From positions 76,949 through 140,948 of the forward strand of contig CAVURJ010000001.1 of NCBI GenBank assembly GCA_963743885.1: a DNA stretch of 64,000 nt, in the 5' to 3' direction. This DNA comes from Candidatus Moraniibacteriota bacterium (lineage in GTDB: Bacteria > Patescibacteriota > Minisyncoccia > Moranbacterales > UBA1568). The notes below the pieces were generated by a model, which did no database searches, was not told the origin of the DNA, and was given only the letters and a program-made list of their open reading frames with translations. Of this stretch, positions 3,208-54,540 are shown piece by piece. How positions within the stretch are numbered: position 1 is the first letter of the stretch; each line of letters opens with the position of its first letter. The position numbers were made by a program, and so were the translations under genes.

Positions 3208-4251
3208 TCAGGCTTTGCCGAAAGTACGTATCTTGCGATAGAAGCCAAGGAAGGTATTCTTGAAACCGATGAAGGCGAAGAAAAGAATCACTGCTGACGC
3301 CCCAATCACCCTCCAAGGCATCACCCAAAATGATACCTCCGCCTCAAGCGGGACATCACGAGTACCATCGTCGTAGGCCATGACCAGCTTGGCCGTATAC
3401 TTGCCGAAACGGAGTTTGTGAGCCTGCGAGAAATCCCATTGGAGTTCAGAAATCGGCTGTCCATCCTCATCAAAGACGGTGCGATCGCCATCACGCTTTT
3501 CAATACGAAGCGGGAATCCATCCTCCCATTTAACCGAGTAGATACGGTTGGAATCAGGAAGAATATTCCCCATCCCCTCATTAACGTCCAAAAGAGCAAC
3601 TTGTTTGTCTGTAGTAGAACTAATAAAAATATTGCCCCTCGGAGCCACATGGACATTGCCAGAATTTCTCACCTTAACATTGAATGTTGTCGGGAGAAAT
3701 TCATACCATGAACGATCGGTGGAAAACTCCGCAATCTGCGCCTCTCTTCTTGCATCCGGAGTCCTCACATCAAGCAAAACAAGAACTGCCGAACCGCCAG
3801 TAATAGCCGTCTGTCGTACTCCTGTTTTGACCTCTTCATCAGCCCTGGAAAATACGACTGCGTAGTAATAGCCAAATGAAGCGCTCTTGGGCGGATTGAG
3901 CGTCGTGGTAATCGTTTTCCATTCCTGTGGATCGATATTGAAAGCATCCTCCGAGAAAGAAATCCACTTGATGAAATCATCGCTCGGCTCCGGATCCATG
4001 AGCTGCGGCTGGCCGTTTTCCTGGTATGCCTTAAACTTCATCAGGCTCGCCTTGATCCTTTCCGACTGACTGCCGCCATTCTTAATCTTGATTTGAGCAG
4101 ATACTGGTGCTCCTGGCTCGGTAACGAGGCTGATTGGAAGCGGGGACGTGACAAGATTCAAGCTACCATCAGATTGAGCAGAAGCAACCGGAATAGCAAT
4201 CAAAAAACAGAGTACAATAAACAGTGAGCCAGAGAAGAGATGTTTGGTCAT
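3208..4251 (-). CDS. Secreted surface protein with C-terminal TM anchor, tandem duplicate copy 1
   Basis: The ORF track start at 4359 reads through the upstream copy's C-terminal codons. The real start is ATG at 4251 (MTKHLFSGSLFIVLCFLIAIPVASA). Roughly 320 aa are identical to 4268..5305 except one residue (DVPLEAEV vs DVQLEAEV). The C-terminal TM/basic tail is unique (SAVILFFAFIGFKNTFLGFYRKIRTFGKA). Confidence 0.55.
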   Translation of the reverse strand: MTKHLFSGSLFIVLCFLIAIPVASAQSDGSLNLVTSPLPISLVTEPGAPVSAQIKIKNGGSQSERIKASLMKFKAYQENGQPQLMDPEPSDDFIKWISFSEDAFNIDPQEWKTITTTLNPPKSASFGYYYAVVFSRADEEVKTGVRQTAITGGSAVLVLLDVRTPDARREAQIAEFSTDRSWYEFLPTTFNVKVRNSGNVHVAPRGNIFISSTTDKQVALLDVNEGMGNILPDSNRIYSVKWEDGFPLRIEKRDGDRTVFDEDGQPISELQWDFSQAHKLRFGKYTAKLVMAYDDGTRDVPLEAEVSFWVMPWRVIGASAVILFFAFIGFKNTFLGFYRKIRTFGKA

Positions 4252-5418: not shown

Positions 5419-6498
5419 CTAGAATCGACCCGCAGCCACAATAGTGAGTGTATCGGTATAATCCGAAGCTGCTGCCTGCACTGCCGAAATCTTCGCGCGC
5501 TCGATAAGGGTCAAGACATCTCCGCTCGCCACGCCATCACAAGAAGCAATCGGTTGGAAAGAAGTTGAAAGGGTTCCGCCTGAAGTTGTATTTGCACCAA
5601 GGTATTCCGGATCAATAACAAGGTTCGAACTTCCAGAACATGTCTCCGTTGTTTCATCAACATCCAAGACGTAACCGGTTAATGAGGCCAAATCTGAAGG
5701 AGCTCCATTTACCGTTCCAGCTGTAGCAATAGAGGCTGAGGCAACGGTCGAATTCAAAGCCGCATTAGCGCTCTTAACCCAAGCTATCCATCCATCCTGA
5801 GCATTAGTAGCAACAGTTAATGTATTTCCGTATGTTGAAGTCGTCGTCGTAGAAAGATTTCCCGTAAACGAATCCGTATTCGCATCGGCATCGGCATCGG
5901 CTCCATCACCAAATACGACACTGAATGTCGGTGGAACGGTTGCGGAAATTACCAGTTGATCATTAGCTATGACGGACAGCGCGTAGCTGGAAGAATCTAT
6001 TGTGGCCGCCCCGCTTGTTCGCGTGGTAATAGTTCCGACCTGATCATTTCCAAGCGCGCCAGTAGTCAATGTTGATGTTCCAGTGAAGTGAAAGCAGTAC
6101 ATGGTTCCAACAACAAGATCCCCGGAAGGGAATGTGACCGTCTTACCCGAAACCGAGTCCGCATCAGTTACGCCAGATGTCATACCAATCCAAAACGTTG
6201 ATCCTGTCGGAAGATTAGTATCATCCACTACCCAGTTCGTTGCGGTGCTATTCACTGTAAAATCAGTTCCTGCTACCGTTGGGAAAGTGACCTGAACATC
6301 ACTCTCGGTATTGGCAGTCGCTGGCCGGGCACACACCGTACCACCGGTTGTTGTAACATCACTTATACGATCAAGCCGAACATACGCTTGCTGGAAGTTC
6401 GCCGCTTCAACCTTATTTACGAGAATCGGGAGAACAATGACTAAAAGAAGTACAATCGCCTCAAGCACGGCCGTCCTCCGGATAAACATTCGCTTCAT
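5419..6498 (-). CDS. Secreted Thr/Ser/Gly-rich surface protein, paralog of 6684..7766 (WxL-like role inferred from locus context only)
   Basis: 359 aa with signal peptide MKRMFIRRTAVLEAIVLLLVIVLPILVNKVEA. C-terminal motif DYTDTLTIVAAGRF matches DYVETLTVIASGSF of the neighbouring gene. Contains a G/D/A low-complexity stretch (GDGADADADANTD). Confidence 0.5.
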   Translation of the reverse strand: MKRMFIRRTAVLEAIVLLLVIVLPILVNKVEAANFQQAYVRLDRISDVTTTGGTVCARPATANTESDVQVTFPTVAGTDFTVNSTATNWVVDDTNLPTGSTFWIGMTSGVTDADSVSGKTVTFPSGDLVVGTMYCFHFTGTSTLTTGALGNDQVGTITTRTSGAATIDSSSYALSVIANDQLVISATVPPTFSVVFGDGADADADANTDSFTGNLSTTTTSTYGNTLTVATNAQDGWIAWVKSANAALNSTVASASIATAGTVNGAPSDLASLTGYVLDVDETTETCSGSSNLVIDPEYLGANTTSGGTLSTSFQPIASCDGVASGDVLTLIERAKISAVQAAASDYTDTLTIVAAGRF

Positions 6499-6683
6499 AC
6501 TTTTCGATTAATGTTCGTTTTGTTCGAAAACACGAGAGTTTTCACTCGCTCACTTACCATTATACACGAAAAATGCTCGCTCGTCAAAGATTTCATCTAT
6601 ACGGACCGATACAGACTCTACGCTGACTCGCACGGACGGGTGCAAATCATACACCGATTCATACTGACCTCATGAAAACATCA

Positions 6684-7766
6684 TCAGAAACTTCCCGAAG
6701 CGATGACGGTGAGCGTCTCGACATAATCGCCAGCAGCAGGAGTAGTGTTCGCAGACTTGGCCTTGAGGACGAACGAGCCGCGGCCGGCTGTGATCGGTGC
6801 AGAAGTCGAGAAGATTTCGCGGATAGTCGTATTCGTCACGCCGACCGTATCAGAGCTGCCATTATACGGTGCGACGAGTGCGAGTGGGCCGCCTGACCCC
6901 TGGGCTACCGAGGCTCCTTGAGCACCAAAACCGCTCTGGGCAGCGGAAAGATCGGCCGTTGCCGAAGAGATAGTATGGCTCGCTGTCGAGCTGTACAGGC
7001 CGCCATTGGCAGAGCTCACATAGACCTTGCCGCCGGTCGTGCCATTGGTATCAAGATCAATCCAGACACGATTTCCGCTCGTTACAACCGACCCGGCTGG
7101 CAAGCTTCCGAGGTCGATATCCCGTATCTCATTTTCATCCGATGACGATGTTCCTATATCAATATCAAATGAAAGCTGCGGGTTCGATGTCGCGACAGCG
7201 GCTGTCGGTCCGTAGCCGGTCTCGGTAAACTTGCCCTGCCAGGCCTTCACTTTGACCGTATAGGTCGTTCCGGCCGCAAGACCGATGATGTCCATACCGC
7301 TCGCTCCGCCCCAGGCGGCATATGTCTGGTAGTCTTCGAGACCAAGCGTCGCGCCTATGGTCGCATCGCTCTGCACATAGCGCGTATCGGCTACGAAACC
7401 GTCCGTACTGATCGCGATAGCGAAGAGCGTATCGGTCGGATTGCCACCAGTCGCAAGGACGATGTGGAGCTTGTTGTAATAGTTCGAGGGATTGGTGAAG
7501 GTCGGAGCAGGCGGTACATCGGCCTGATTAGTATATTGGAGGCCTGTTCCAGCCTTATAGGCAGCGCTCGAGAGGAGCCCCTGGCTCTGCTCACCAGCAA
7601 GCGTCTCTGCGGCATAGTCAGTCGACGTCGCGTTGCTCGTCCCACCACTCCCGAAGCTGTAATTCTGGAGCTGATAGCTCGTAGACGCAGGCATCACGAG
7701 CATGATAAAAAGTCCCGATGGGATAGGAAGGATGCGCCGCAAAAGATGACGAAAATACTGCTGCAT
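6684..7766 (-). CDS. Secreted Thr/Ser/Gly-rich surface protein, paralog of 5419..6498
   Basis: 360 aa with N-terminal hydrophobic signal and a conserved C-terminal D-Y-x-E-T-L-T-V-I-A-S-G-S-F. Confidence 0.5.
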   Translation of the reverse strand: MQQYFRHLLRRILPIPSGLFIMLVMPASTSYQLQNYSFGSGGTSNATSTDYAAETLAGEQSQGLLSSAAYKAGTGLQYTNQADVPPAPTFTNPSNYYNKLHIVLATGGNPTDTLFAIAISTDGFVADTRYVQSDATIGATLGLEDYQTYAAWGGASGMDIIGLAAGTTYTVKVKAWQGKFTETGYGPTAAVATSNPQLSFDIDIGTSSSDENEIRDIDLGSLPAGSVVTSGNRVWIDLDTNGTTGGKVYVSSANGGLYSSTASHTISSATADLSAAQSGFGAQGASVAQGSGGPLALVAPYNGSSDTVGVTNTTIREIFSTSAPITAGRGSFVLKAKSANTTPAAGDYVETLTVIASGSF

Positions 7767-41842: not shown

Positions 41843-42160
41843 CCGAGGTAGCTCAGTGGTAGAGCAGAGGACTGATTTTCGGTCACTCCTGTAGTAATAC
41901 AGGATGTATGCATCGGGTGAACTCGAGGAAACCTACGTTTCTAGCAATAGGAATATGGCAATCTCGATCCAAGCCTCAGTGGGATAAAGTTCTGAGGAAG
42001 GTGTAGAGACTAGCAGGTGAGCCCCAACAATAATCCTGCAACAGCGCCCGACTTCGCACTCCTTTCGAGGAACGAAGATGAAATAGTCCGATCCTTGGGG
42101 AAACCCAAGACAAATAAGAGGAAAATCCTTGTGTCGGCAGTTCAATCCTGCCCCTCGGCA
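41843..42160 (+). tRNA. tRNA-Phe (anticodon GAA) interrupted by a 246-nt group I intron in the anticodon loop
   Basis: 5' exon 41843..41874 (GCCGAGG acceptor, D-arm, GAGGA-CT) and 3' exon 42121..42160 (GAAAATCCTT...GGCAGTTCAATCCTGCC CCTCGGC A). The acceptor stem is perfectly complementary across 300 nt. The spliced loop reads CTGAAAA. Confidence 0.7.
41875..42120 (+). mobile_element. Group I intron in tRNA-Phe
   Basis: Internal guide GGTC pairs with exon GACU with a U.G at the splice site. P7-forming R/S-like elements are gtagagactagcagg and agatgaaatagtccgatcc. The intron ends in G (omega-G) at 42120. Confidence 0.6.
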
Positions 42161-42228: not shown

Positions 42229-42848
42229 CAAGAAGTTCATTTCAAATTGTGTTGCGGGTTGTGTAATTCAGCATGACAATTGTTGCAAACAAGCAGACAC
42301 TTGTTCACTTCTTCGTCAATATGGGATTGCTTCCGATTTGAAAGGGATCTCATATCGAGTTGAAAGCTTTTTTCTTTCGGATCAAGGTGATGGAAAGTCA
42401 GTGCGGCAAGGTTTTTGTTATAGCCGCAAACTGAACATTTCCCACCGAATCGTTTCAAAAGCGACATCTTTCTCTCCAAGCCCCTGGCTTGTTGGGATTG
42501 ATACGATTGATGAAGCTGATTCTTACAAAAGGGCGAGCAAAAGACTGTTTGTCTGCCAGACAATTCCTTGCTACACACGACACAAGTTATGAGTTTTTTC
42601 ATAACTTTATGATAACACAAAATGAATGGATCTAGCAGGGCTGCTTAGGAAGTAATTCCTAAGTGATACTCTGTCAAACTCGGGGAAATCTAAACGGTGA
42701 GCAGTTTCATCCGCATGACAATCCCGAGCCAAGCCTCATCCATCAGGTGAGGAAGGTGTAGAGACTAGACGGCAGACACCCGTAATTCGGGTGAAGGGAT
42801 AGTCCAGCTCACAAATTTGAAAGAAGTTGCGAAAGCAATAGTGAGAAG
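42229..42848 (+). mobile_element. Group I intron in tRNA(CAT) carrying an antisense HNH endonuclease ORF
   Basis: The 3' part (ccaagcctcatccatcaggtgaggaaggtgtagagactagacgg ... gggatagtccagctcac) is homologous to the tRNA-Phe intron core. The intron ends with G at 42848. The ORF 42237..42620 lies on the opposite strand. Confidence 0.6.
42237..42620 (-). CDS. HNH homing endonuclease (intron-encoded, antisense to host tRNA)
   Basis: 127 aa; CSVCGYNKNLAALTFHHLDPKEKSF ... LLVCNNCHAELHN is a classic HNH/zinc-finger motif. Low GC. Confidence 0.7.
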   Translation of the reverse strand: MCYHKVMKKLITCVVCSKELSGRQTVFCSPFCKNQLHQSYQSQQARGLERKMSLLKRFGGKCSVCGYNKNLAALTFHHLDPKEKSFQLDMRSLSNRKQSHIDEEVNKCLLVCNNCHAELHNPQHNLK

Positions 42849-47827: not shown

Positions 47828-48055
47828 ATATGTGGATAACAGTGTACAAACGTCTTTTTTGGCTTATATTGTGCCCTCGAGAGGAATCGGACCTCTATTT
47901 ACTCGTTAGGAGTGAGTCGTTCTATCCATTGAACTACAAGGGCGAAGACGCATACTACCACGTCTCATTCATCTTATCAATGCTTACGTGTTAAGTAAAA
48001 CAAAAAATCCCCAAATAAGGAGATTTTCGCGACAACGCCTGATTTTCCGAAAACA

Positions 48056-48072
48056 GTGTGGACCATGCCGGA
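48056..48072 (-). repeat. 17-nt direct repeat of the tRNA-Ala 3' end (gtgtggaccatgccgga), 220 bp 3' of the tRNA
   Basis: Identical to 48292..48308. The intervening segment carries cctgcctaccggcaggcagg. Confidence 0.75.
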
Positions 48073-48294
48073 ACACTCACTACGCCCCTTCGATAAACTC
48101 GGGGTGCGTTCTATAGGGCTTCCCTGCCCGAAGTGCTACATCGTTGCAGGCGGGCGCCCTCTAGTCCTCTCCGCCCAGCTGGCGGATCGGTCACCCCGAA
48201 CGGGAAACTCCCGTTTCCTCGACTCGATTCGAGTCGAAGCGGGCCGACCCCTGCCTACCGGCAGGCAGGCCTTCCCTATTCGACCCCGTCAGTG

Positions 48295-48375: not shown

Positions 48376-49050
48376 CTACATGAGTAGCATTTTAGCAATG
48401 TGTTTTAATTCAAGATCAATAGAAGAAGAAAAGTAGTCAACGCGACATACGCCTCTGTAATCGGCTTTTCTTGACTTTTTACCAATGGTTCTCTTATCAA
48501 TCCTTGCTTTGTAAAACTGACTGCGAGAGACGGCTGTAATTTTAGACCAAATATTCTCTAAAGATTCTACGTCTTGATCTGCTCTGCATTGAACCGTAAT
48601 TCTGAACTTTGACTCATCAATCTCATAACATTCTCGCATAAGGCGCATAAAAAGTCCAATGATGGATGGGTCTGAGTTACCAAACATAAGGGCTCCCCTT
48701 GGTGATTTGGAGCCTTCTGCTAGATAGAGAACTGCCAATGTAATTTTTCGGGAATCTTTGCTGGTTTTAAAAAAATTAATAAGCGAATTATTTTGTGAAT
48801 TAAGTTTTTCTACTAGAACTAAACGGTCCTCTTTTTTCTTTTCTAGAGCCATAATTCTAGATTTTTCAAGATGAAGTTTATTCATATTCTTCATCTTCAA
48901 ATAGTATTCTTCTGGCAGTTTAACCTTACTGCACCAGCTAGAAAGCGTGCTTTTTGAAATAATAACACCTAAAATATCACTAATCTCACTATATGTTCTC
49001 CCTTGCGAACGGAGATGCTGAGCTCTAATTTTGATGGAATATAATTTCAT
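48376..49050 (-). CDS. HTH-domain protein with a degenerate single LAGLIDADG-like motif (possible inactivated homing endonuclease or DNA-binding protein), in an AT-rich island
   Basis: 224 aa. N-terminal helix-turn-helix is RTYSEISDILGVIISKSTLSSW. Central KITLAVLYLAEGSKSPRGALMFGNSDPSIIGLF follows the LAG-x-x-D-G-D-G-S-x pattern with Glu in place of Asp. About 33% GC, directly upstream of the parS array. Confidence 0.3.
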   Translation of the reverse strand: MKLYSIKIRAQHLRSQGRTYSEISDILGVIISKSTLSSWCSKVKLPEEYYLKMKNMNKLHLEKSRIMALEKKKEDRLVLVEKLNSQNNSLINFFKTSKDSRKITLAVLYLAEGSKSPRGALMFGNSDPSIIGLFMRLMRECYEIDESKFRITVQCRADQDVESLENIWSKITAVSRSQFYKARIDKRTIGKKSRKADYRGVCRVDYFSSSIDLELKHIAKMLLM

Positions 49051-49139
49051 AGATTTATTGTACCATAGAACTACTCCATGTGTAAATAAGTTAGGTTCAT
49101 TTTTTAAGATGAGACTTTCTTGCTCAACTATTTACTAAT

Positions 49140-50350
49140 TGTTCCACGTGGAACAATTCCGATACTAGTCACCCTATCAGAACAATCCAGAATATCTTTT
49201 AAACGATACTTTCCTACTTGAAAGTAAAAATCATGCCATTAGGCTAATCTGTAAGCCAAAAATACGCACGGTCCAGCCCGCGTCATCACAATGTTCCACG
49301 TGGAACATATTACACTCCATAATAATTAATCATCTGTTCCACGTGGAACATTCAAAAAAACCAGTAGCGGATAACAATGAGACAACGAGATTGTTCCACG
49401 TGGAACAATTTAAAAAAATACCTCCGTATCTACGTGACAGCAAAAAATTAGCGTATCGATGTTCCACGTGAAACATACTCATATATACAGACTTGTTCCA
49501 CGTGGAACAAAATACCCACTATGAACAATCATGGGTCTTGAGGATCCTTAAAAGATAAGCGATTGCTATGGAGCCACAGAAAGCATATTCTAAAACATCC
49601 TATGTTCCACGTGGAACATACATCAAAAAAACAGCCAGCCTGAAATATCCCTTATCCTCGTTTTCAAATATACTTTCCTTTCAAAAAGTCTAAAAATACT
49701 GTTTTTTGGCTTATGATAGGTACGTAAGACACAAAAATACTAGTTGTTCCACGTGGAACATGCCAAAATTCCATACCAATGTTCCACGTGGAACATTTTT
49801 AAAAAAACGATATCCTTGAGGCGTCTCACAATGTTCCACGTGGAACATATGTGTTTTTTGAAAAACAGTCTCAAAACGATCCATCCCATACAAAGGTTCG
49901 CCAGAACAGCTGCGCCTCTACTTATCGCGATACATTGTTCCACGTGGAACAATGTATCATTACAATACATGGATAAGGGAAAGATGTTCCACGTGGAACA
50001 TATCTACCGAATACCCACTCCATGAACATTAAAAATTATCCTTTTGCCAGAACTTTCTTCTTTGAAAGTTAGAAATTTGTATATTTTGGCTTATATTAAA
50101 TATTTATGTTAATAATGTTCCACGTGGAACATGCTAACACAATCAAATCTTATCGTGCTTGAAACATATTTTAAAAAATGTTCCACGTGGAACATTTAAA
50201 CAAGTCACCAAAAGATCGGGTATTTCGCCAGGGGATTATGTTCCACGTGGAACATAGCCATCATTATTAAAAACTCAAATATACAAATATCCTATATATC
50301 ATACTAATAATTGACAGAATGGACTGCTGTAAAATGTTCCACGTGGAACA
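49140..50350. repeat. parS: Array of 16 parS-type 16-bp palindromes TGTTCCACGTGGAACA (one copy TGTTCCACGTGAAACA) with irregular 34-152 bp spacing in AT-rich noncoding DNA
   Basis: Core starts: 49140, 49292, 49335, 49392, 49460 (gtgAaaca variant), 49494, 49603, 49745, 49780, 49832, 49935 (a 26-bp perfect palindrome tacattgttccacgtggaacaatgta), 49985, 50116, 50179, 50239, 50335. Most are flanked to give the 18-bp ATGTTCCACGTGGAACAT or TTGTTCCACGTGGAACAA. The sequence is one or two symmetric changes from the canonical Firmicute/ParB parS TGTTNCACGTGAAACA. Confidence 0.85.
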
Positions 50351-50384
50351 TCTTATATCACTTTTTCTCTACATTATTGACATA

Positions 50385-50413
50385 TATACTATATTGTAGT
50401 ATAATAATGCTCT
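50385..50413 (+). promoter_or_regulatory. Perfect consensus sigma70 promoter (TTGACA - 17 bp - TATAAT)
   Basis: ttgaca at 50385..50390, 17-bp spacer, tataat at 50408..50413. Confidence 0.6.
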
Positions 50414-50419
50414 GTCTAC

Positions 50420-50815
50420 TATATACATGCTACCAAGATGATTTTCATTATTAACAAACGCTGGCCATCTGCGAGTTCTACGCGAGCTTAACAAAAGACA
50501 CTGAGCCCCAACACAAGCCTTGGATCTAATCCCTCTCCGCCTCTGGCAGAGAGTATTGACCAGATTTTACCTACGCTCCTCCGCCAGCTGGCGGACGGAA
50601 ACGAGAGTAAAATCTTGTTTCGCTCGCTTTGCTCGATAATTAAAAGACGGTGCTGGGCAGGTGCTTATCGAAAGGGGCTCGTGTCTTTCTACTACATCCG
50701 ATCAGCAGCGAGCTCCCTACGTCTCGACTTCGCAGCCCTCGTTATTGTGGCACGCCTAGCCAATGTATTCGATATCATCCTCTTGGGCCTAATACACAAG
50801 GCTCGGTTTTTTTAA
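50420..50815 (+). ncRNA. Candidate roughly 400-nt structured noncoding transcript (identity unknown) between the consensus promoter and a T7 run
   Basis: Higher GC than the AT-rich surroundings and multiple internal helices (cagattttac...gtaaaatcttg; ccgccagctggcgg). It ends ggctcggttttttt at 50808..50815. Only weak ORFs (66 and 72 aa) lie within it. The downstream gene has its own TTGATA-17-TATACT promoter at 50877..50905. Confidence 0.35.
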
Positions 50816-50933
50816 AACAACTTCATACCCCGTCCCGCCTACTAATCATCACTCGCAGTCTGACATAATCGTAAAATTGATACACACAGAAAAATATGTT
50901 ATACTTTCATTGTAAAAACAAGTAGCGACTCTT

Positions 50934-51926
50934 ATGAGCCGTAATGTTTCTTCTAGTACTGTCGGATCCGATGCGCGAGTGTCCCTTTTTGTATTTTCCA
51001 GCCTGCTTGTTTTTAGTGCAGTTTTTTTTATTTTTTCCGGAAGCGCTTCCGGGACATCAAATATTTTCCAAGATACCGACCAGGACGGCTTGAGCAACGA
51101 TGAAGAGAAGCTCTATGGGACCGACCCGAACAATCGGGACAGCGATAATGATGGGTATGGGGATGGAGTAGAAGTAGAAAGCGGATACGACCCTCTCAAG
51201 AAAGCCCCTGGAGATAAAATTACCCAAGAAGAATCGACCACTGCTACCATCTCACCAGCTGCTACCAATGATACTGCTACGTTGACTGACCGGGTGTCGA
51301 GCGAAATTGCTGCGGCGTTAAAGTCATCGGAAAGCGCCGAAGAACCGCTCACTATGGAACAGCTTAGCTCGTCTGTTCAGGAAATTCTCAGTGAAAACAC
51401 TCAGGAAATTACGTTGCCGGATATCGATGCCAGTACCATAAAAATCAAGAAGGTTTCAAAAAAACTTTCCGAAAAAAAACGCGAGGAGCAAGAGCGTGAA
51501 GATATCCTCGAGTATCTCACCGTGATGTCATATCTCGTTGCGAATAATTCACCAAAAGCATTCCACGAGGAAAGCGAGCTTGAGGATCTCGCTTCATCAA
51601 TATCAAGCGAATCGCTGACCGCACTGACCACTGGCAACCTATCCTACATCAATCAGCTCGCTGAAAAAGGAGAGAAGATTCTCAACGAAACGCGTGACAT
51701 CGAAGTGCCTGAAACAATGCTTGATACGCACGTCAAAGCTCTTAGGATTGCAACTTATGCCGTCAACCTCAAAGACTCGTCAGCATCGGTGCAAAACGAT
51801 CCTCTCGGGCAAATAGCGCTACTCTCAAAAACACAAGGACTGATCGGTGCCGCTTCATCACTTGGAGAAGAAATCCAGGGAAGGCTCTCAGGATACGGAA
51901 TCAAGAATATCCCAATCAGCCTCTGA
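50934..51926 (+). CDS. Membrane-anchored/secreted acidic protein with thrombospondin type-3-like Ca-binding repeats
   Basis: 330 aa; N-terminal TM (LFVFSSLLVFSAVFFIF), then DTDQDGLSNDEEKLYGTDPNNRDSDNDGYGDGVE (D-x-D-x-D-G repeats), then an acidic helical region. Confidence 0.45.
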   Translation: MSRNVSSSTVGSDARVSLFVFSSLLVFSAVFFIFSGSASGTSNIFQDTDQDGLSNDEEKLYGTDPNNRDSDNDGYGDGVEVESGYDPLKKAPGDKITQEESTTATISPAATNDTATLTDRVSSEIAAALKSSESAEEPLTMEQLSSSVQEILSENTQEITLPDIDASTIKIKKVSKKLSEKKREEQEREDILEYLTVMSYLVANNSPKAFHEESELEDLASSISSESLTALTTGNLSYINQLAEKGEKILNETRDIEVPETMLDTHVKALRIATYAVNLKDSSASVQNDPLGQIALLSKTQGLIGAASSLGEEIQGRLSGYGIKNIPISL

Positions 51927-51931
51927 ATACT

Positions 51932-53212
51932 ATGCGGCTATCGCAAAAAAACAATCTTTTCATGCGAATACCCCGAGCGGTTCTGTTTTCTAGCTGCCTT
52001 GTCATCATAATCGGCTTCGCTCCAAATGCTTCTGCTGGCGTTTGGGGAGAAACATTCTCAGCTACCATATGGAAGCAGGTGATGGAAGTCGCCTACACGC
52101 AAATACAGGGCATGATGCTAGGAGCCCTCAAATCAGCAGCCATGCAAGCTCTTAATCAGCAAGTAAACCAATTGATTGGCGGTTCATCTTCCAGCAAAGC
52201 TTTATTTATCACGAACTACGAGACCTTCCTCTACCAGGACCCGCTCCAAAAAACCAACCTCTACATGAACGATTTCTTTACGCTCACAACACGCGGGAAG
52301 GGAGCTTCATCAAACTACATCAGCTCAGGAACTGGGGCGTTTAGCAATTATGCCGGACATATTGTCGATATCGGGAAAAAATCAACTATCAATCAGACTG
52401 TGCCAACATATGATCTCGACAATTACTGCGATATTCCGGGAGAAATCACGTCCTTCCAATGCTTCTCGGGTATGTTTAAAAATCCGATGAATAATGATTT
52501 CGGATCTTCGCTGATATTTCAATCTGCATACCAAAGCCAATCCATAAAAAACCAGCGTATAGCCGAAGTCGAAGCGCAATCATCAGGGTTCCTCGGCTCA
52601 AAAAAGGGGAATCAAGTCGTCGCGCCAGCAGGGACTATCGAGGCTATGGCTGGAAAGGTACAGAATATAGGGAGCGACCTCATCGCATCCGCTACGAACC
52701 CCGGGGAACTCGTCTCGAGCGCCGTCGCCGCCATGGCATCGCAAATGATCAATCGACTCGTACAGCAAGGCATCGGACAAGCGCAAGCCAACATGCAACG
52801 GGAGATTTCTAACGTTTCAAGCGAAATAAACACATCCAGAAGTGACGCTATGCGCAATAGCGGTCCGGGAGCGGTCTTTTCTCCGGTCATGGCCCAACGG
52901 ACATCGGTGCGTATCAATCCGAACACTCCTGCACCGCCAGTTGCTTCATCGACCATATCGCCTTGTTCCGGATTCGGCGGCTCTTCCGGAAGTTGTGCTC
53001 CGGCAGCAACGTGTACAAACGGATACAGCGAGTCTGGTTGTGGCAGCGGTCTCGTCTGCTGCTACAATCCGCCAGCGGGAACTGGCCTCGCTGTCGGCTT
53101 GCCATGTTCCTCATACGGGAAAGCTTCAACGTGCCAAAAATCATCTTCATGCAGCCATGGATATACGATTGGTGGTTGTGAAGATGGACTTGTCTGCTGC
53201 TACAACCCGTGA
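51932..53212 (+). CDS. Secreted protein with a duplicated C-terminal Cys-rich module
   Basis: 426 aa with a signal peptide. The C-terminus has two copies of C-x5-C-x2-GY-x3-GC-x2-GLVCCYNP (CAPAATCTNGYSESGCGSGLVCCYNP / CQKSSSCSHGYTIGGCEDGLVCCYNP). This resembles the N-terminal Cys module of the 33052..34269 protein. Confidence 0.45.
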   Translation: MRLSQKNNLFMRIPRAVLFSSCLVIIIGFAPNASAGVWGETFSATIWKQVMEVAYTQIQGMMLGALKSAAMQALNQQVNQLIGGSSSSKALFITNYETFLYQDPLQKTNLYMNDFFTLTTRGKGASSNYISSGTGAFSNYAGHIVDIGKKSTINQTVPTYDLDNYCDIPGEITSFQCFSGMFKNPMNNDFGSSLIFQSAYQSQSIKNQRIAEVEAQSSGFLGSKKGNQVVAPAGTIEAMAGKVQNIGSDLIASATNPGELVSSAVAAMASQMINRLVQQGIGQAQANMQREISNVSSEINTSRSDAMRNSGPGAVFSPVMAQRTSVRINPNTPAPPVASSTISPCSGFGGSSGSCAPAATCTNGYSESGCGSGLVCCYNPPAGTGLAVGLPCSSYGKASTCQKSSSCSHGYTIGGCEDGLVCCYNP

Positions 53213-53346
53213 TTCTTTCTCAAAGGACACCCATAACGGGTATTGGACCCGATTTTACCTGCGCTCTCTTCGAGTCTGAGCCTCAGAGTCGATGACCGCT
53301 CGGAAACGAGAGCAAGCTCTCGTTTCACTCCCTACACTTGGTAATC

Positions 53347-53385
53347 AAAAGCGCCCCGAGCTTGTCGAAGGGCGCTTTTGTATAT
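53347..53385 (+). terminator. Intrinsic terminator
   Basis: aaaagcgccccgagcttgtcgaagggcgctttt plus a T-run. Confidence 0.6.
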
Positions 53386-53496
53386 ATGGTGGGTGATACT
53401 GGATTCCCTGGCTGCTCGCCTCGATGAGGCATCGGGCGAAGCGGTCCGACAGGCAGGGAACCAGTGACTTCATCCCTCACTTGAATACCTTACGGG

Positions 53497-53570
53497 TGGG
53501 TCTGCCCAGATTCGAACTGGGGACCTCTACAATGTCAATGTAGCGCTCTAACCAACTGAGCTACAGACCC
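53497..53570 (-). tRNA. tRNA-Val (anticodon GAC)
   Basis: Reverse complement GGGTCTG TA GCTCAGTTGGTTAGAGC G CTACA TTGACAT TGTAG AGGTC CCCAGTTCGAATCTGGG CAGACCC A. It is flanked by a 22-bp inverted repeat (53471..53492 / 53579..53600). Confidence 0.85.
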
Positions 53571-53673
53571 GAAAAATAAAGGTATTCAAGTGAGGGATCA
53601 ATGTGACGCTCTACTAACCCCAGCCCAAGGCTGGTCCGCCTCGGGCGGAAACTGAGCTCATCACTCCGAAAAC

Positions 53674-54540
53674 TTACGCCGCCGGCATGCTCGGATCGAG
53701 CACGTGTTCACCGGAAGCGAGCTTTTCACTATCCCTTTCTGAAGCAAGATCCTCAAAAAATCTCAAGGAAAGCGCTTGGTCGAAGACCATGAACCAGACA
53801 AACCCGATAAACCCGATACCGAGGACTATCTGCTCAGAAAAAGGCACCAAACCGACTTTCATGAAAAGGGAACTAGTACCCAGCATAGCGGCATTCAGGA
53901 AAAAAGTAAAGACTGCCGCTACCGCTATGGAGAATATCCAGAAGCCGAGGCTTCTTAGAAAAAACTTCGAGAAAAGCGCCGCGCCGCGATCCACTGAGGA
54001 GCGGAGTCTAAGCGGCGAAAGCAGGTGATAGAACAATCCATACTGCCGAATGAACGAGATGACAAGCGCGACAGGAAGAAACGCGACGATGCTCAAGAGA
54101 GCTGCTCCTTCGAAGGCTCCACGATTACTCAAAAGCGCGAGGAGCGGTGGGGCCGCGAAGATGAACGCGAGCACACAGAGCGCCGCTCCGGCCGTCACAT
54201 CCACAGCGAGCGTCTTGATAAAACGGCTGATCATCTCGCCCATCCTGAAGCCCATCCTGCGAGTAGAAAGCGCTGCGATCAGGTTGGCCTGACCGAACGC
54301 ATGCGCAAGGAGCAGAAGGAGAAACCCACCCGTAGCGATAGCTGTGTGCTCGACCCAAAAATCCCTCAAGGCCAGAGCGGCGCCCCCAGAAGCCGGCTGT
54401 TGCCAAAGAGCCTGCGCGACAAGCTGCTCCGCCATCATGCCGGAAGCGACCAGCATGCCGAAAAAGAGCGTCGGCGCTTTAGGCGTTGATGCCTTCCACG
54501 CCTGCGATACGAGTTCGGAAAACGGAGCCTTCTCCATCAT
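53674..54540 (-). CDS. Hypothetical polytopic membrane protein
   Basis: 288 aa, about 7 TM segments, no recognisable motif. Confidence 0.4.
   Translation of the reverse strand: MMEKAPFSELVSQAWKASTPKAPTLFFGMLVASGMMAEQLVAQALWQQPASGGAALALRDFWVEHTAIATGGFLLLLLAHAFGQANLIAALSTRRMGFRMGEMISRFIKTLAVDVTAGAALCVLAFIFAAPPLLALLSNRGAFEGAALLSIVAFLPVALVISFIRQYGLFYHLLSPLRLRSSVDRGAALFSKFFLRSLGFWIFSIAVAAVFTFFLNAAMLGTSSLFMKVGLVPFSEQIVLGIGFIGFVWFMVFDQALSLRFFEDLASERDSEKLASGEHVLDPSMPAA

Follow-up and report, generated by a model that had tools for sequence, protein, structure and literature searches.

Among the closest described systems, the REP/REPIN sequences and their associated genes of REP-associated tyrosine transposases (RAYT, of the Y1/HUH type), known from the BIMEs of Escherichia coli and the REPINs of Pseudomonas, comprise short, multi-copy extragenic hairpins, which occur in either orientation, often lie next to terminators and are passively co-transcribed, together with a Y1 transposase gene that is present once and lies between hairpins of its own. 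A second group are the PATEs, elements derived from the insertion sequences (IS) of the IS200/IS605 type, which lack terminal inverted repeats and target duplications and feature subterminal hairpins as well as a fixed short 5' sequence. Furthermore, the Rickettsia palindromic elements and the mitochondrial GC clusters are palindromes of small size and raised GC content, which spread through reduced genomes and enter hairpins, RNA-gene-like sequence and, in frame, coding genes. Against this background, the present article deals with a segment of about 400 nt within a 64-kb stretch of Candidatus Moraniibacteriota DNA (the whole of which is termed the window), and with R1, a repeat family of about 86 nt, a diverged copy of which resides in the folded core of this segment.

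The segment, at 50,385-50,815, had been regarded in a preliminary description as the gene of a dedicated stable structural RNA. With modest confidence it is interpreted here as a transcribed spacer behind the operon promoter P1, the folded core of which is a worn duplicate of the REP/PATE-like R1 repeat, and not as a conserved RNA gene. R1 itself appears to be an undescribed family that comes nearest, by analogy of behaviour, to the REP/REPIN or the IS200/IS605-derived palindromic elements. In addition, the segment recalls by its sequence features Correia and ERIC elements and small RNAs (sRNAs) derived from 3' untranslated regions (UTRs), where a repeat behind a promoter gives rise to a structured RNA or a duplicate of a 3' UTR or terminator becomes a separate unit.

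Promoter, predicted transcript and terminator of the segment

Promoter P1 (50377..50405, plus strand) agrees with the sigma-70-type consensus TTGACA-17-TATAAT in 12 of 12 positions. The perfect consensus had already been recognized, though its placement at 50385..50413 has to be corrected. Only three perfect TTGACA-N16-18-TATAAT sites are present in the 64-kb window, as opposed to an expectation of 0.01. P1 lies, as stated previously, just past the last site of an array of parS sites, which ends at 50350 and is followed 26 nt on by the -35 hexamer. The 400-nt stretch behind P1 is probably transcribed: judging from the position of the -10 hexamer and from the terminator, the predicted transcript covers 50412..50813 on the plus strand and holds no credible open reading frame (ORF). 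At its 3' end an intrinsic terminator (50783..50813, plus strand) comprises an 8-bp stem with four G-C pairs and an 8-nt loop (50783-50806), followed by a run of seven T residues at 50807-50813, in agreement with the T7 end noted before.

The internal complementarity of the segment is likewise borne out, since its minimum free energy amounts to -118 kcal/mol and surpasses that of shuffled sequences on both strands (z = -2.7 for the plus and -3.1 for the minus strand). On the other hand, the segment's reputation of being GC-richer than its surroundings applies in part only. Its GC content of 0.47-0.52 across 50400-50800 exceeds the 0.29-0.37 of the parS array, whereas the transcript as such, with 0.49, remains close to the window average of 0.51. 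Hence, the segment is GC-richer merely relative to the AT-rich array and is ordinary for the genome.

Downstream of the terminator, a second promoter, P2 (50877..50905, plus strand), features TTGATA-17-TATACT with an upstream TG, as had been recognized, and represents the conserved proximal promoter of a two-gene operon (50934..53212, plus strand). The operon encodes a 330-aa protein with TSP3 repeats and an N-terminal hydrophobic segment as well as a 426-aa protein with a Cys-rich C-terminus, and it is flanked by two copies of R1, termed A and B.

The operon promoters in related loci

Searches with the 330-aa protein retrieved three Candidatus Moraniibacteriota genomes, those with the 426-aa protein 48 relatives, of which the closest is about 52% identical. 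Eleven related loci (loci are designated by L numbers) were compared for gene order and promoters. The conserved order comprises tRNA-Arg, tRNA-Ala, the parS array, the 330-aa gene, a gene of about 430 aa, tRNA-Val, a 288-aa gene, FtsH and TilS. A P1-like promoter (TTGACA-N16-18-TATAAT) follows the parS array at the same position in L001, L003, L004, L006, L007, L008, L010 and L011, and in L008 and L003 the distance between this promoter and the start codon is just about 95-115 nt. Overall, nine genomes keep P1 behind the array. Within the nearest clade, which is composed of the window, L004/L005, L006 and L007, both P1 and P2 are strongly conserved and lie 393-500 nt apart. As judged from this positional conservation, P1 is the promoter of the downstream operon and not that of an RNA gene.

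The DNA between the two promoters behaves in a different manner. It is unconserved in the nearest clade, where only L004 and L007 align, and no relative of the segment was found by blastn and nhmmer at the same slot of any related locus. Likewise, neither the fetched loci nor other parts of the window contain relatives of subsegments S1-S2 (50406-50500) and S5 (50649-50830), and comparison of the unique segment at 50689..50782 (plus strand) by blastn and nhmmer with 61 loci and with all other window sequence gave no match. The corresponding spacers of L004, L006 and L007 contain neither a gene that gene callers would report nor a terminator between P1 and P2, and their folding does not differ significantly from that of shuffled sequences (z = -0.9, -2.1 and +0.5). 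Since the spacer is unconserved behind an old operon promoter, the 400 nt constitute a clade-specific, fast-evolving spacer, and the terminator at 50783-50813, which closes the unit, is unique to this genome. The comparison with homologous loci, which the preliminary description had recommended, therefore returned no conserved sequence at this slot, and its dedicated structural RNA is not upheld: the promoter is that of the operon, the orthologous spacers are not significantly structured and the fold signal originates from the diverged R1 copy.

An alternative explanation, which is rather unlikely, holds that P1 and the terminator bound a lineage-specific sRNA gene, the product of which would be a trans-acting or structural RNA of about 400 nt with a co-opted R1 core. 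A promoter and a terminator of its own do surround the non-coding unit here, as would be expected of an independent sRNA gene, and it is the terminator present in this genome alone that makes the unit discrete. The z-score of -2.7, the want of any ORF with a family match and an alternative 12-nt helix of copy A, which canonical copies lack, point in the same direction. However, no part of the 400 nt is conserved in sequence or structure at the same slot of the relatives, as compared at about 50% protein identity, the orthologous spacers are unstructured, P1 is older than the spacer and serves the operon, and copy A is the most degraded member of its family.

According to another proposal, the segment would act in cis on the 330/426-aa operon as a regulatory leader or attenuator, so that transcripts from P1 either stop at 50813 or read through upon a sensed signal. 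P1 is located upstream of the operon in all relatives, and in L004, L006 and L007, where no terminator intervenes between P1 and the gene, a 5' UTR of 400 nt would result; moreover, copy A can adopt two folds that exclude each other. A further hint is provided by a perfect palindrome of 10-12 bp, TCTATATATAGA, which follows P1 in the three nearest relatives, at L004:2880-2900, at L006:3560-3575 and 3720-3735 and at L007:275-290, and which may be an operator. The only counterpart in the window is TCTACTATATAC at 50416-50427. Nevertheless, the proposal is improbable, given that no riboswitch or leader family in Rfam matches the segment, that leader sequence and structure vary among the relatives and that the operon possesses the conserved P2.

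Origin of the folded core

The structured core of the segment, at 50494-50688, matches the window a second time at 53239-53381, directly 3' of the 426-aa gene, and the R1 copies A and B contained in these two stretches are paralogous. Their local alignment runs past R1 into the terminator region, up to 50684 and 53381, respectively, and AAAG(G)ACAC precedes both copies. In addition, A and B have derived features in common that are absent from other members of the family, namely ACCU-R-CGCUC, an identically placed R1 P2 hairpin and the 3' end UAAU-Y-AAAAG. Because the similarity extends beyond R1 and comprises the same 5' sequence and these shared features, copy A is a segmental duplicate of the 3' flank of the operon.

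In the minimum free energy structure, the repeat copy is enclosed by a 15-bp helix, the 5' arm of which (50494..50509, plus strand) reads AAAGACAC-T-GAGCCCC and the 3' arm of which (50674-50688, plus strand) reads GGGGCTC-GTGTCTTT. In L004, the terminator downstream of the 430-aa gene (AAAAGACACCC..GGGCGTCTTTT) has a similar 5' arm. Next in the segment comes a degenerate long-form 5' module (50503..50550, plus strand), in which the linker ATCTAATCCC joins the mini-hairpins H1 (CCAACACAAGCCTTGG) and H2 (CTCTCCGCCTCTGGCAGAGAG); its similarity to the corresponding modules of the long forms in L031 and L053 is weak, yet specific. Copy A proper (50551..50648, plus strand) is diverged: its R1 helix P1 contains a C.A mismatch, its P3 has 8 bp including a G.U pair, and an extra P2 hairpin is present. 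The near-perfect alternative helix of 12 nt, ACCAGATTTTAC/GTAAAATCTTGT, is the one that canonical copies lack. Between copy A and the unique segment, 50649..50688 (plus strand) is, according to the A/B alignment, what is left of the terminator region situated behind copy B, and it ends in the 3' arm of the enclosing helix.

Copy B (53238..53353, plus strand), with helices P0, P1, the optional P2 and P3, is immediately preceded by ATAAC and begins 26 nt past the end of the 426-aa gene, counted from its stop codon; L001, L004 and L005 have orthologues in the corresponding place. Its 3' end overlaps the intrinsic terminator of the operon (AAAAGCGCCC...GGGCGCTTTT, 53347..53379, plus strand). Two covariance models were applied to the copies, a first one built from five sequences (model R1) and a later one (model R2). 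With these, copy B, the fold of which has a z-score of -5.2, attains 94 and 72 bits, respectively, while copy A is matched over its full length with 81 bits (E 2e-16, model R1) and 55 bits (E 2e-11, model R2), the latter value being the weakest of the family when compared to the 72 bits of copy B and the roughly 95 bits of canonical copies. Beyond the window, R1 copies occupy the interval between P1 and the gene in two further lineages, so that this interval is occupied in three lineages, on the plus strand in the window and on the minus strand in L001 and L011.

Size, fold and covariation of the R1 family

A strict DNA motif derived from copies A and B gave no metagenome match, whereas a relaxed motif from four lineages retrieved 50 loci; in viral contigs, a looser R1 motif remained without a match. 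All 50 metagenome contigs carry R1, with 61 full-length copies in total and up to three per 11 kb. All carriers with organism names are Moraniibacteriota or Moranbacteria, including one contig from a named Moranbacteria genome. The family is described by a three-helix element of about 86 nt with the consensus GGGUAUUcaACCCGAUUUUACCGGCACUgCGCUCGGAAACGAAAGUAAACUUUCGUUUCgCUCgCUUCGUUUGGUAAUAAA, in which helices P0 (GGGU/ACCC), P1 (UUACC/GGUAA) and P3 (10 bp) covary. Alignment cells assigned to these helices are paired in 97.9% of cases as opposed to 42-58% with slid partners, double changes occur in 9 of 15 pairs, and the covariation score was reached by no shuffle. An independent MAFFT and RNAalifold run recovered helices P1 and P3, with 11 of 16 pairs being compensatory. 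Neither Rfam 15 nor the phage and plasmid collections (searched by blastn with the canonical long form) contain a match to canonical copies, and the literature searched by topic and by consensus strings describes nothing of the kind. The novel element suggested by the preliminary description thus survives in the shape of the covarying R1 family, which is absent from Rfam, and not as an RNA dedicated to the segment.

These properties also permit the explanation that R1 is a functional structured RNA class, for instance a small self-cleaving ribozyme or the ligand of a group-specific protein, and that the P1 transcript is an expressed representative of this class. Three covarying helices, near-invariant junctions and optional variable stems at fixed sites speak in its favour, as does the absence from Rfam 15. 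Small ribozymes are typically multi-copy and dispersed without gene association, so that a dispersal of this type would suit them too. Known Rfam ribozyme classes (hammerhead, twister, pistol, hatchet and others) yielded only noise against canonical R1. On the other hand, R1 shows no excess of G.U over A.C and no linked promoter or terminator on either strand, and its loop flips and nested palindromes with short flanking repeats, together with a RAYT-like transposase in a carrier genome, render this explanation quite unlikely. A more specific form of this explanation, the prospects of which are similarly poor, regards R1 as a new functional structured RNA class of Candidatus Moraniibacteriota, which could act as a small ribozyme or together with a protein partner. 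The P1 transcript, next to a parS array that is centromere-like, would then represent a copy that has been domesticated, is highly expressed and serves a function of its own.

Probable spread of R1 at the DNA level

R1 copies are intergenic and randomly oriented with respect to the flanking genes, the four orientation classes comprising 15, 14, 11 and 9 cases, and no recurrent neighbour protein was detected beyond re-sampled identical contigs. Promoters and terminators of their own are not enriched around the copies on either strand (3/43 versus 4/43 and 6/43 versus 4/43). With regard to mismatches, 19 G.U versus 12 A.C were counted in the model-fitted alignment and 8 versus 7 in that of MAFFT; since G.U is about as frequent as A.C, R1 carries no RNA-strand signal.

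The sequence (A)ATAAC stands directly 5' of 33 of 48 distinct R1 copies, and in five sense copies its TAA serves as the stop codon of the upstream ORF. Long forms of R1 contain 25-100 nt of GC-rich mini-hairpins between duplicated GGGTATT. Near-identical R1 contigs differ by a single mini-hairpin, some hairpins sit within the loops of others, and such nested palindromes carry short flanking repeats. In addition, the P3 loops are exchanged for their reverse complement, generally as UAAA/UUUA. In one instance the loop is CAAG at L004:5896-5919 and CTTG (CUUG in RNA) at L005:3041-3064, although both contigs encode identical proteins, a difference that looks like an inversion of the hairpin loop. 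Loop flips and nested palindromes with flanking repeats point to events at the DNA level. On account of these repeat-like features, R1 is likely to spread as DNA and to be passively co-transcribed.

In comparison to the established systems, R1 qualifies as a multi-copy, orientation-independent extragenic repeat, like REP/REPIN sequences. It does not conform to the simple palindrome of 20-40 nt with a 5' tetranucleotide that characterizes the latter, since its 86 nt form a junction of three helices in which long unpaired sequences are invariant; only its sub-hairpins P3, H1 and H2 are REP-like. PATEs, on the other hand, agree with R1 in the lack of terminal inverted repeats and target duplications, in subterminal hairpins and possibly in a fixed short 5' sequence, for which (A)ATAAC would be the counterpart, though ATAAC could equally belong to the element. 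They differ in that, for R1, the search revealed no complete parent IS sharing its ends.

Other affiliations were considered and dismissed. A miniature inverted-repeat transposable element with terminal inverted repeats does not fit, because GGGTATT... at one end of R1 and ...GGTAATAAA at the other do not form inverted repeats and target duplications are missing; the flanks show no duplication beyond AATAA-like ends, which are compatible with an extended R1 helix P1. An integron attC site is precluded by a 3' end that deviates from GTTRRRY and by mixed orientations. A link to tRNA genes, as conceivable from copy B adjoining tRNA-Val, does not apply to the family, most copies having no tRNA nearby.

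A Y1 transposase-like gene in a carrier contig

The Moranbacteria contig L025 encodes, within 5900-7500, a 224-aa Y1 (HUH) transposase-like protein with an HYH motif, the gene of which is located 700 nt from a long-form R1 copy. This places a Y1 transposase family in a carrier genome of R1, as is the setting of PATEs. The protein matches Pfam Y1_Tnp with 29.4 bits (cut-off 23), and its sole NCBIfam match is RAYT with 30 bits, which is below the cut-off of 80; a search of PDB sequences returned no match. A mini-hairpin, TTTGGAAGCCTTGCTTCCAAA, flanks the gene on both sides and interrupts it twice in frame, whereby the peptide FGSKASK is encoded. This arrangement is reminiscent of the single-copy RAYT gene between its own hairpins, with the differences that the flanking hairpin is not R1 itself, that the RAYT score remains below cut-off and that the window lacks such a gene. 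The two FGSKASK insertions, along with hairpins in tRNA-like D and T loops, parallel the Rickettsia palindromic elements, from which R1 is set apart by the lack of a sequence relationship, by another host phylum and by its junction architecture in place of one long hairpin; the same distinctions hold for the mitochondrial GC clusters.

Known RNA families and coding alternatives

Owing to its size of about 400 nt, its strong promoter and its non-coding nature, the segment resembles RNase P RNA and tmRNA, which had been named as the usual suspects. The scan with Rfam covariance models, which had been called for, was carried out with Rfam 15 and gave nothing for the segment, neither at gathering score in a scan over the window nor at E<=10 over 50300-50950. 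Accordingly, the models of bacterial RNase P RNA, in which the conserved P4 core is represented, remained without a match at either threshold. With respect to tmRNA, ARAGORN reported eight tRNAs but no tmRNA, no Rfam tmRNA model including the permuted forms matched, and a tRNA-like end is missing. Candidate, copy B and canonical R1 copies, when scanned separately against Rfam at gathering score and E<=10, gave noise only. Within the reach of sequence-and-structure models, both RNase P RNA and tmRNA can be excluded. A divergent version of either, or of another housekeeping RNA, is scarcely credible, as merely size and promoter strength would argue for it, whereas the position is not conserved in the relatives and the core is a dispersed repeat.

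As reported before, two overlapping ORFs of 66 aa (50615-50815) and 72 aa (50650-50868) exist without specifying a convincing protein: they start with TTG and GTG, respectively, and have no Pfam match. That one of them is a small protein gene is highly improbable, considering that no gene is called in the segment of an identical public Logan contig, which occurs in run ERR12035942, that both ORFs overlap the repeat copy and the terminator hairpins and that the spacers of L004, L006 and L007 are free of called genes. A pseudogene origin was rejected as well, as tblastn of all long ORFs from related loci against 49001-50935 found nothing in the candidate; the only matches in that range are parS sites translated in three frames.

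Evidence weighing against a transcribed repeat-bearing spacer

Several observations weigh against the interpretation of the segment as a transcribed spacer with a worn repeat copy. A promoter with 12 of 12 consensus positions and a good terminator is the expected appearance of a dedicated sRNA gene. The nearest relatives share only about 52% protein identity, so that the conservation of copy A could be judged only over a long distance, and the P1-P2 spacing of about 400 nt is kept in four genomes despite sequence change, which may indicate that the spacer or its RNA matters. As to the nature of the repeat, merely two R1 copies occur in the 64-kb window, and no Y1 transposase is encoded in the window or in any locus other than L025. 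Moreover, the unpaired junctions of R1, GGCACUGCGCUCG and GCUCGCUUCGUUU, are nearly invariant, and terminal inverted repeats and target duplications are absent; these junctions and end features would be no less expected of a protein-binding site or of an RNA with a function than of a mobile repeat.

Neighbourhood of the segment

The parS array upstream of P1 (49140..50350), outside the transcript, contains 16 sites of TGTTCCACGTGGAACA, of which 15 are perfect and one has a single mismatch, as compared to 0.02 expected. Arrays of 11-16 sites occupy the same slot in L001, L003, L004 and L006. The functional tie between segment and array that had been envisaged found no support beyond adjacency. 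In L001:3410-5596 the whole array is contained in one stop-free frame of 729 codons, the product of which would resemble a membrane protein of the O-antigen-ligase type and in which parS is translated as MFHVEH, VPRGTF or CSTWNI. L002 and L011 contain two to four parS sites in the 3' part of an O-antigen-ligase-type gene, which is gone from the window. A lineage-specific ORF of 224 aa (48376-49050, minus strand), situated between tRNA-Ala and the array and absent from L004 and L006, has a LAGLIDADG-like LYLAEGS motif and only a weak HTH_23 match.

Further peculiarities concern the tRNA genes. Between tRNA-Arg and tRNA-Ala, 48000-48290 has a GC content of 0.57-0.66 and no Rfam match, and the variation of this spacer among the relatives, from 94 to 350 nt, suggests further hairpin insertions. 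Downstream of the operon, tRNA-Val(GAC) (53495-53570, minus strand) is situated between 23-nt inverted repeats at 53469-53491 and 53579-53601, and the region 53390-53690 also comprises two tRNA-like halves with GC-rich hairpins at the positions of the D-loop and the T-loop; in L004 and L006, a tandem decayed copy of tRNA-Val contains hairpins at the same loop positions. Elsewhere in the window, amid a tRNA gene cluster, two group I introns score above the Rfam gathering threshold (41865-42110 and 42622-42829) and may mark intron-containing tRNA genes unreported by ARAGORN.

Proposed course of events and implications

According to the proposed course of events, P1 and P2 would have been located close together ahead of the 330-aa gene in the ancestor, and in the clade of this genome about 400 nt of fast-evolving DNA would have come to separate them. 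A duplicate of repeat and terminator from the 3' flank of the surface-protein operon would then have landed between the tandem promoters. P1 would fire strongly and produce an abundant structured non-coding RNA, which would consist of an AT-rich leader of about 80 nt, the helix-enclosed copy A and about 95 nt of unique sequence before transcription stops at ~50813. Some transcripts might end early, about 280 nt from the start, after the weaker helix that ends at 50688 and is followed by UCUUUCU. P2 would drive the operon. As far as this can be predicted from sequence, the RNA would be a by-product of the duplication without a function in trans, and at most an insulating or attenuating leader.

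For annotation, a word of caution follows from this locus, as a textbook promoter and a terminator around a well-folding, ORF-free segment can represent a repeat copy behind an operon promoter and need not point to an overlooked housekeeping RNA. If R1 were instead a functional RNA, it would constitute a new RNA class. If, on the other hand, R1 and the associated hairpins form a REP/RAYT-type system, such a system would be present in ultra-small, reduced genomes, where the literature searched describes none for this group, and it would account for much of the structured intergenic DNA of these genomes.

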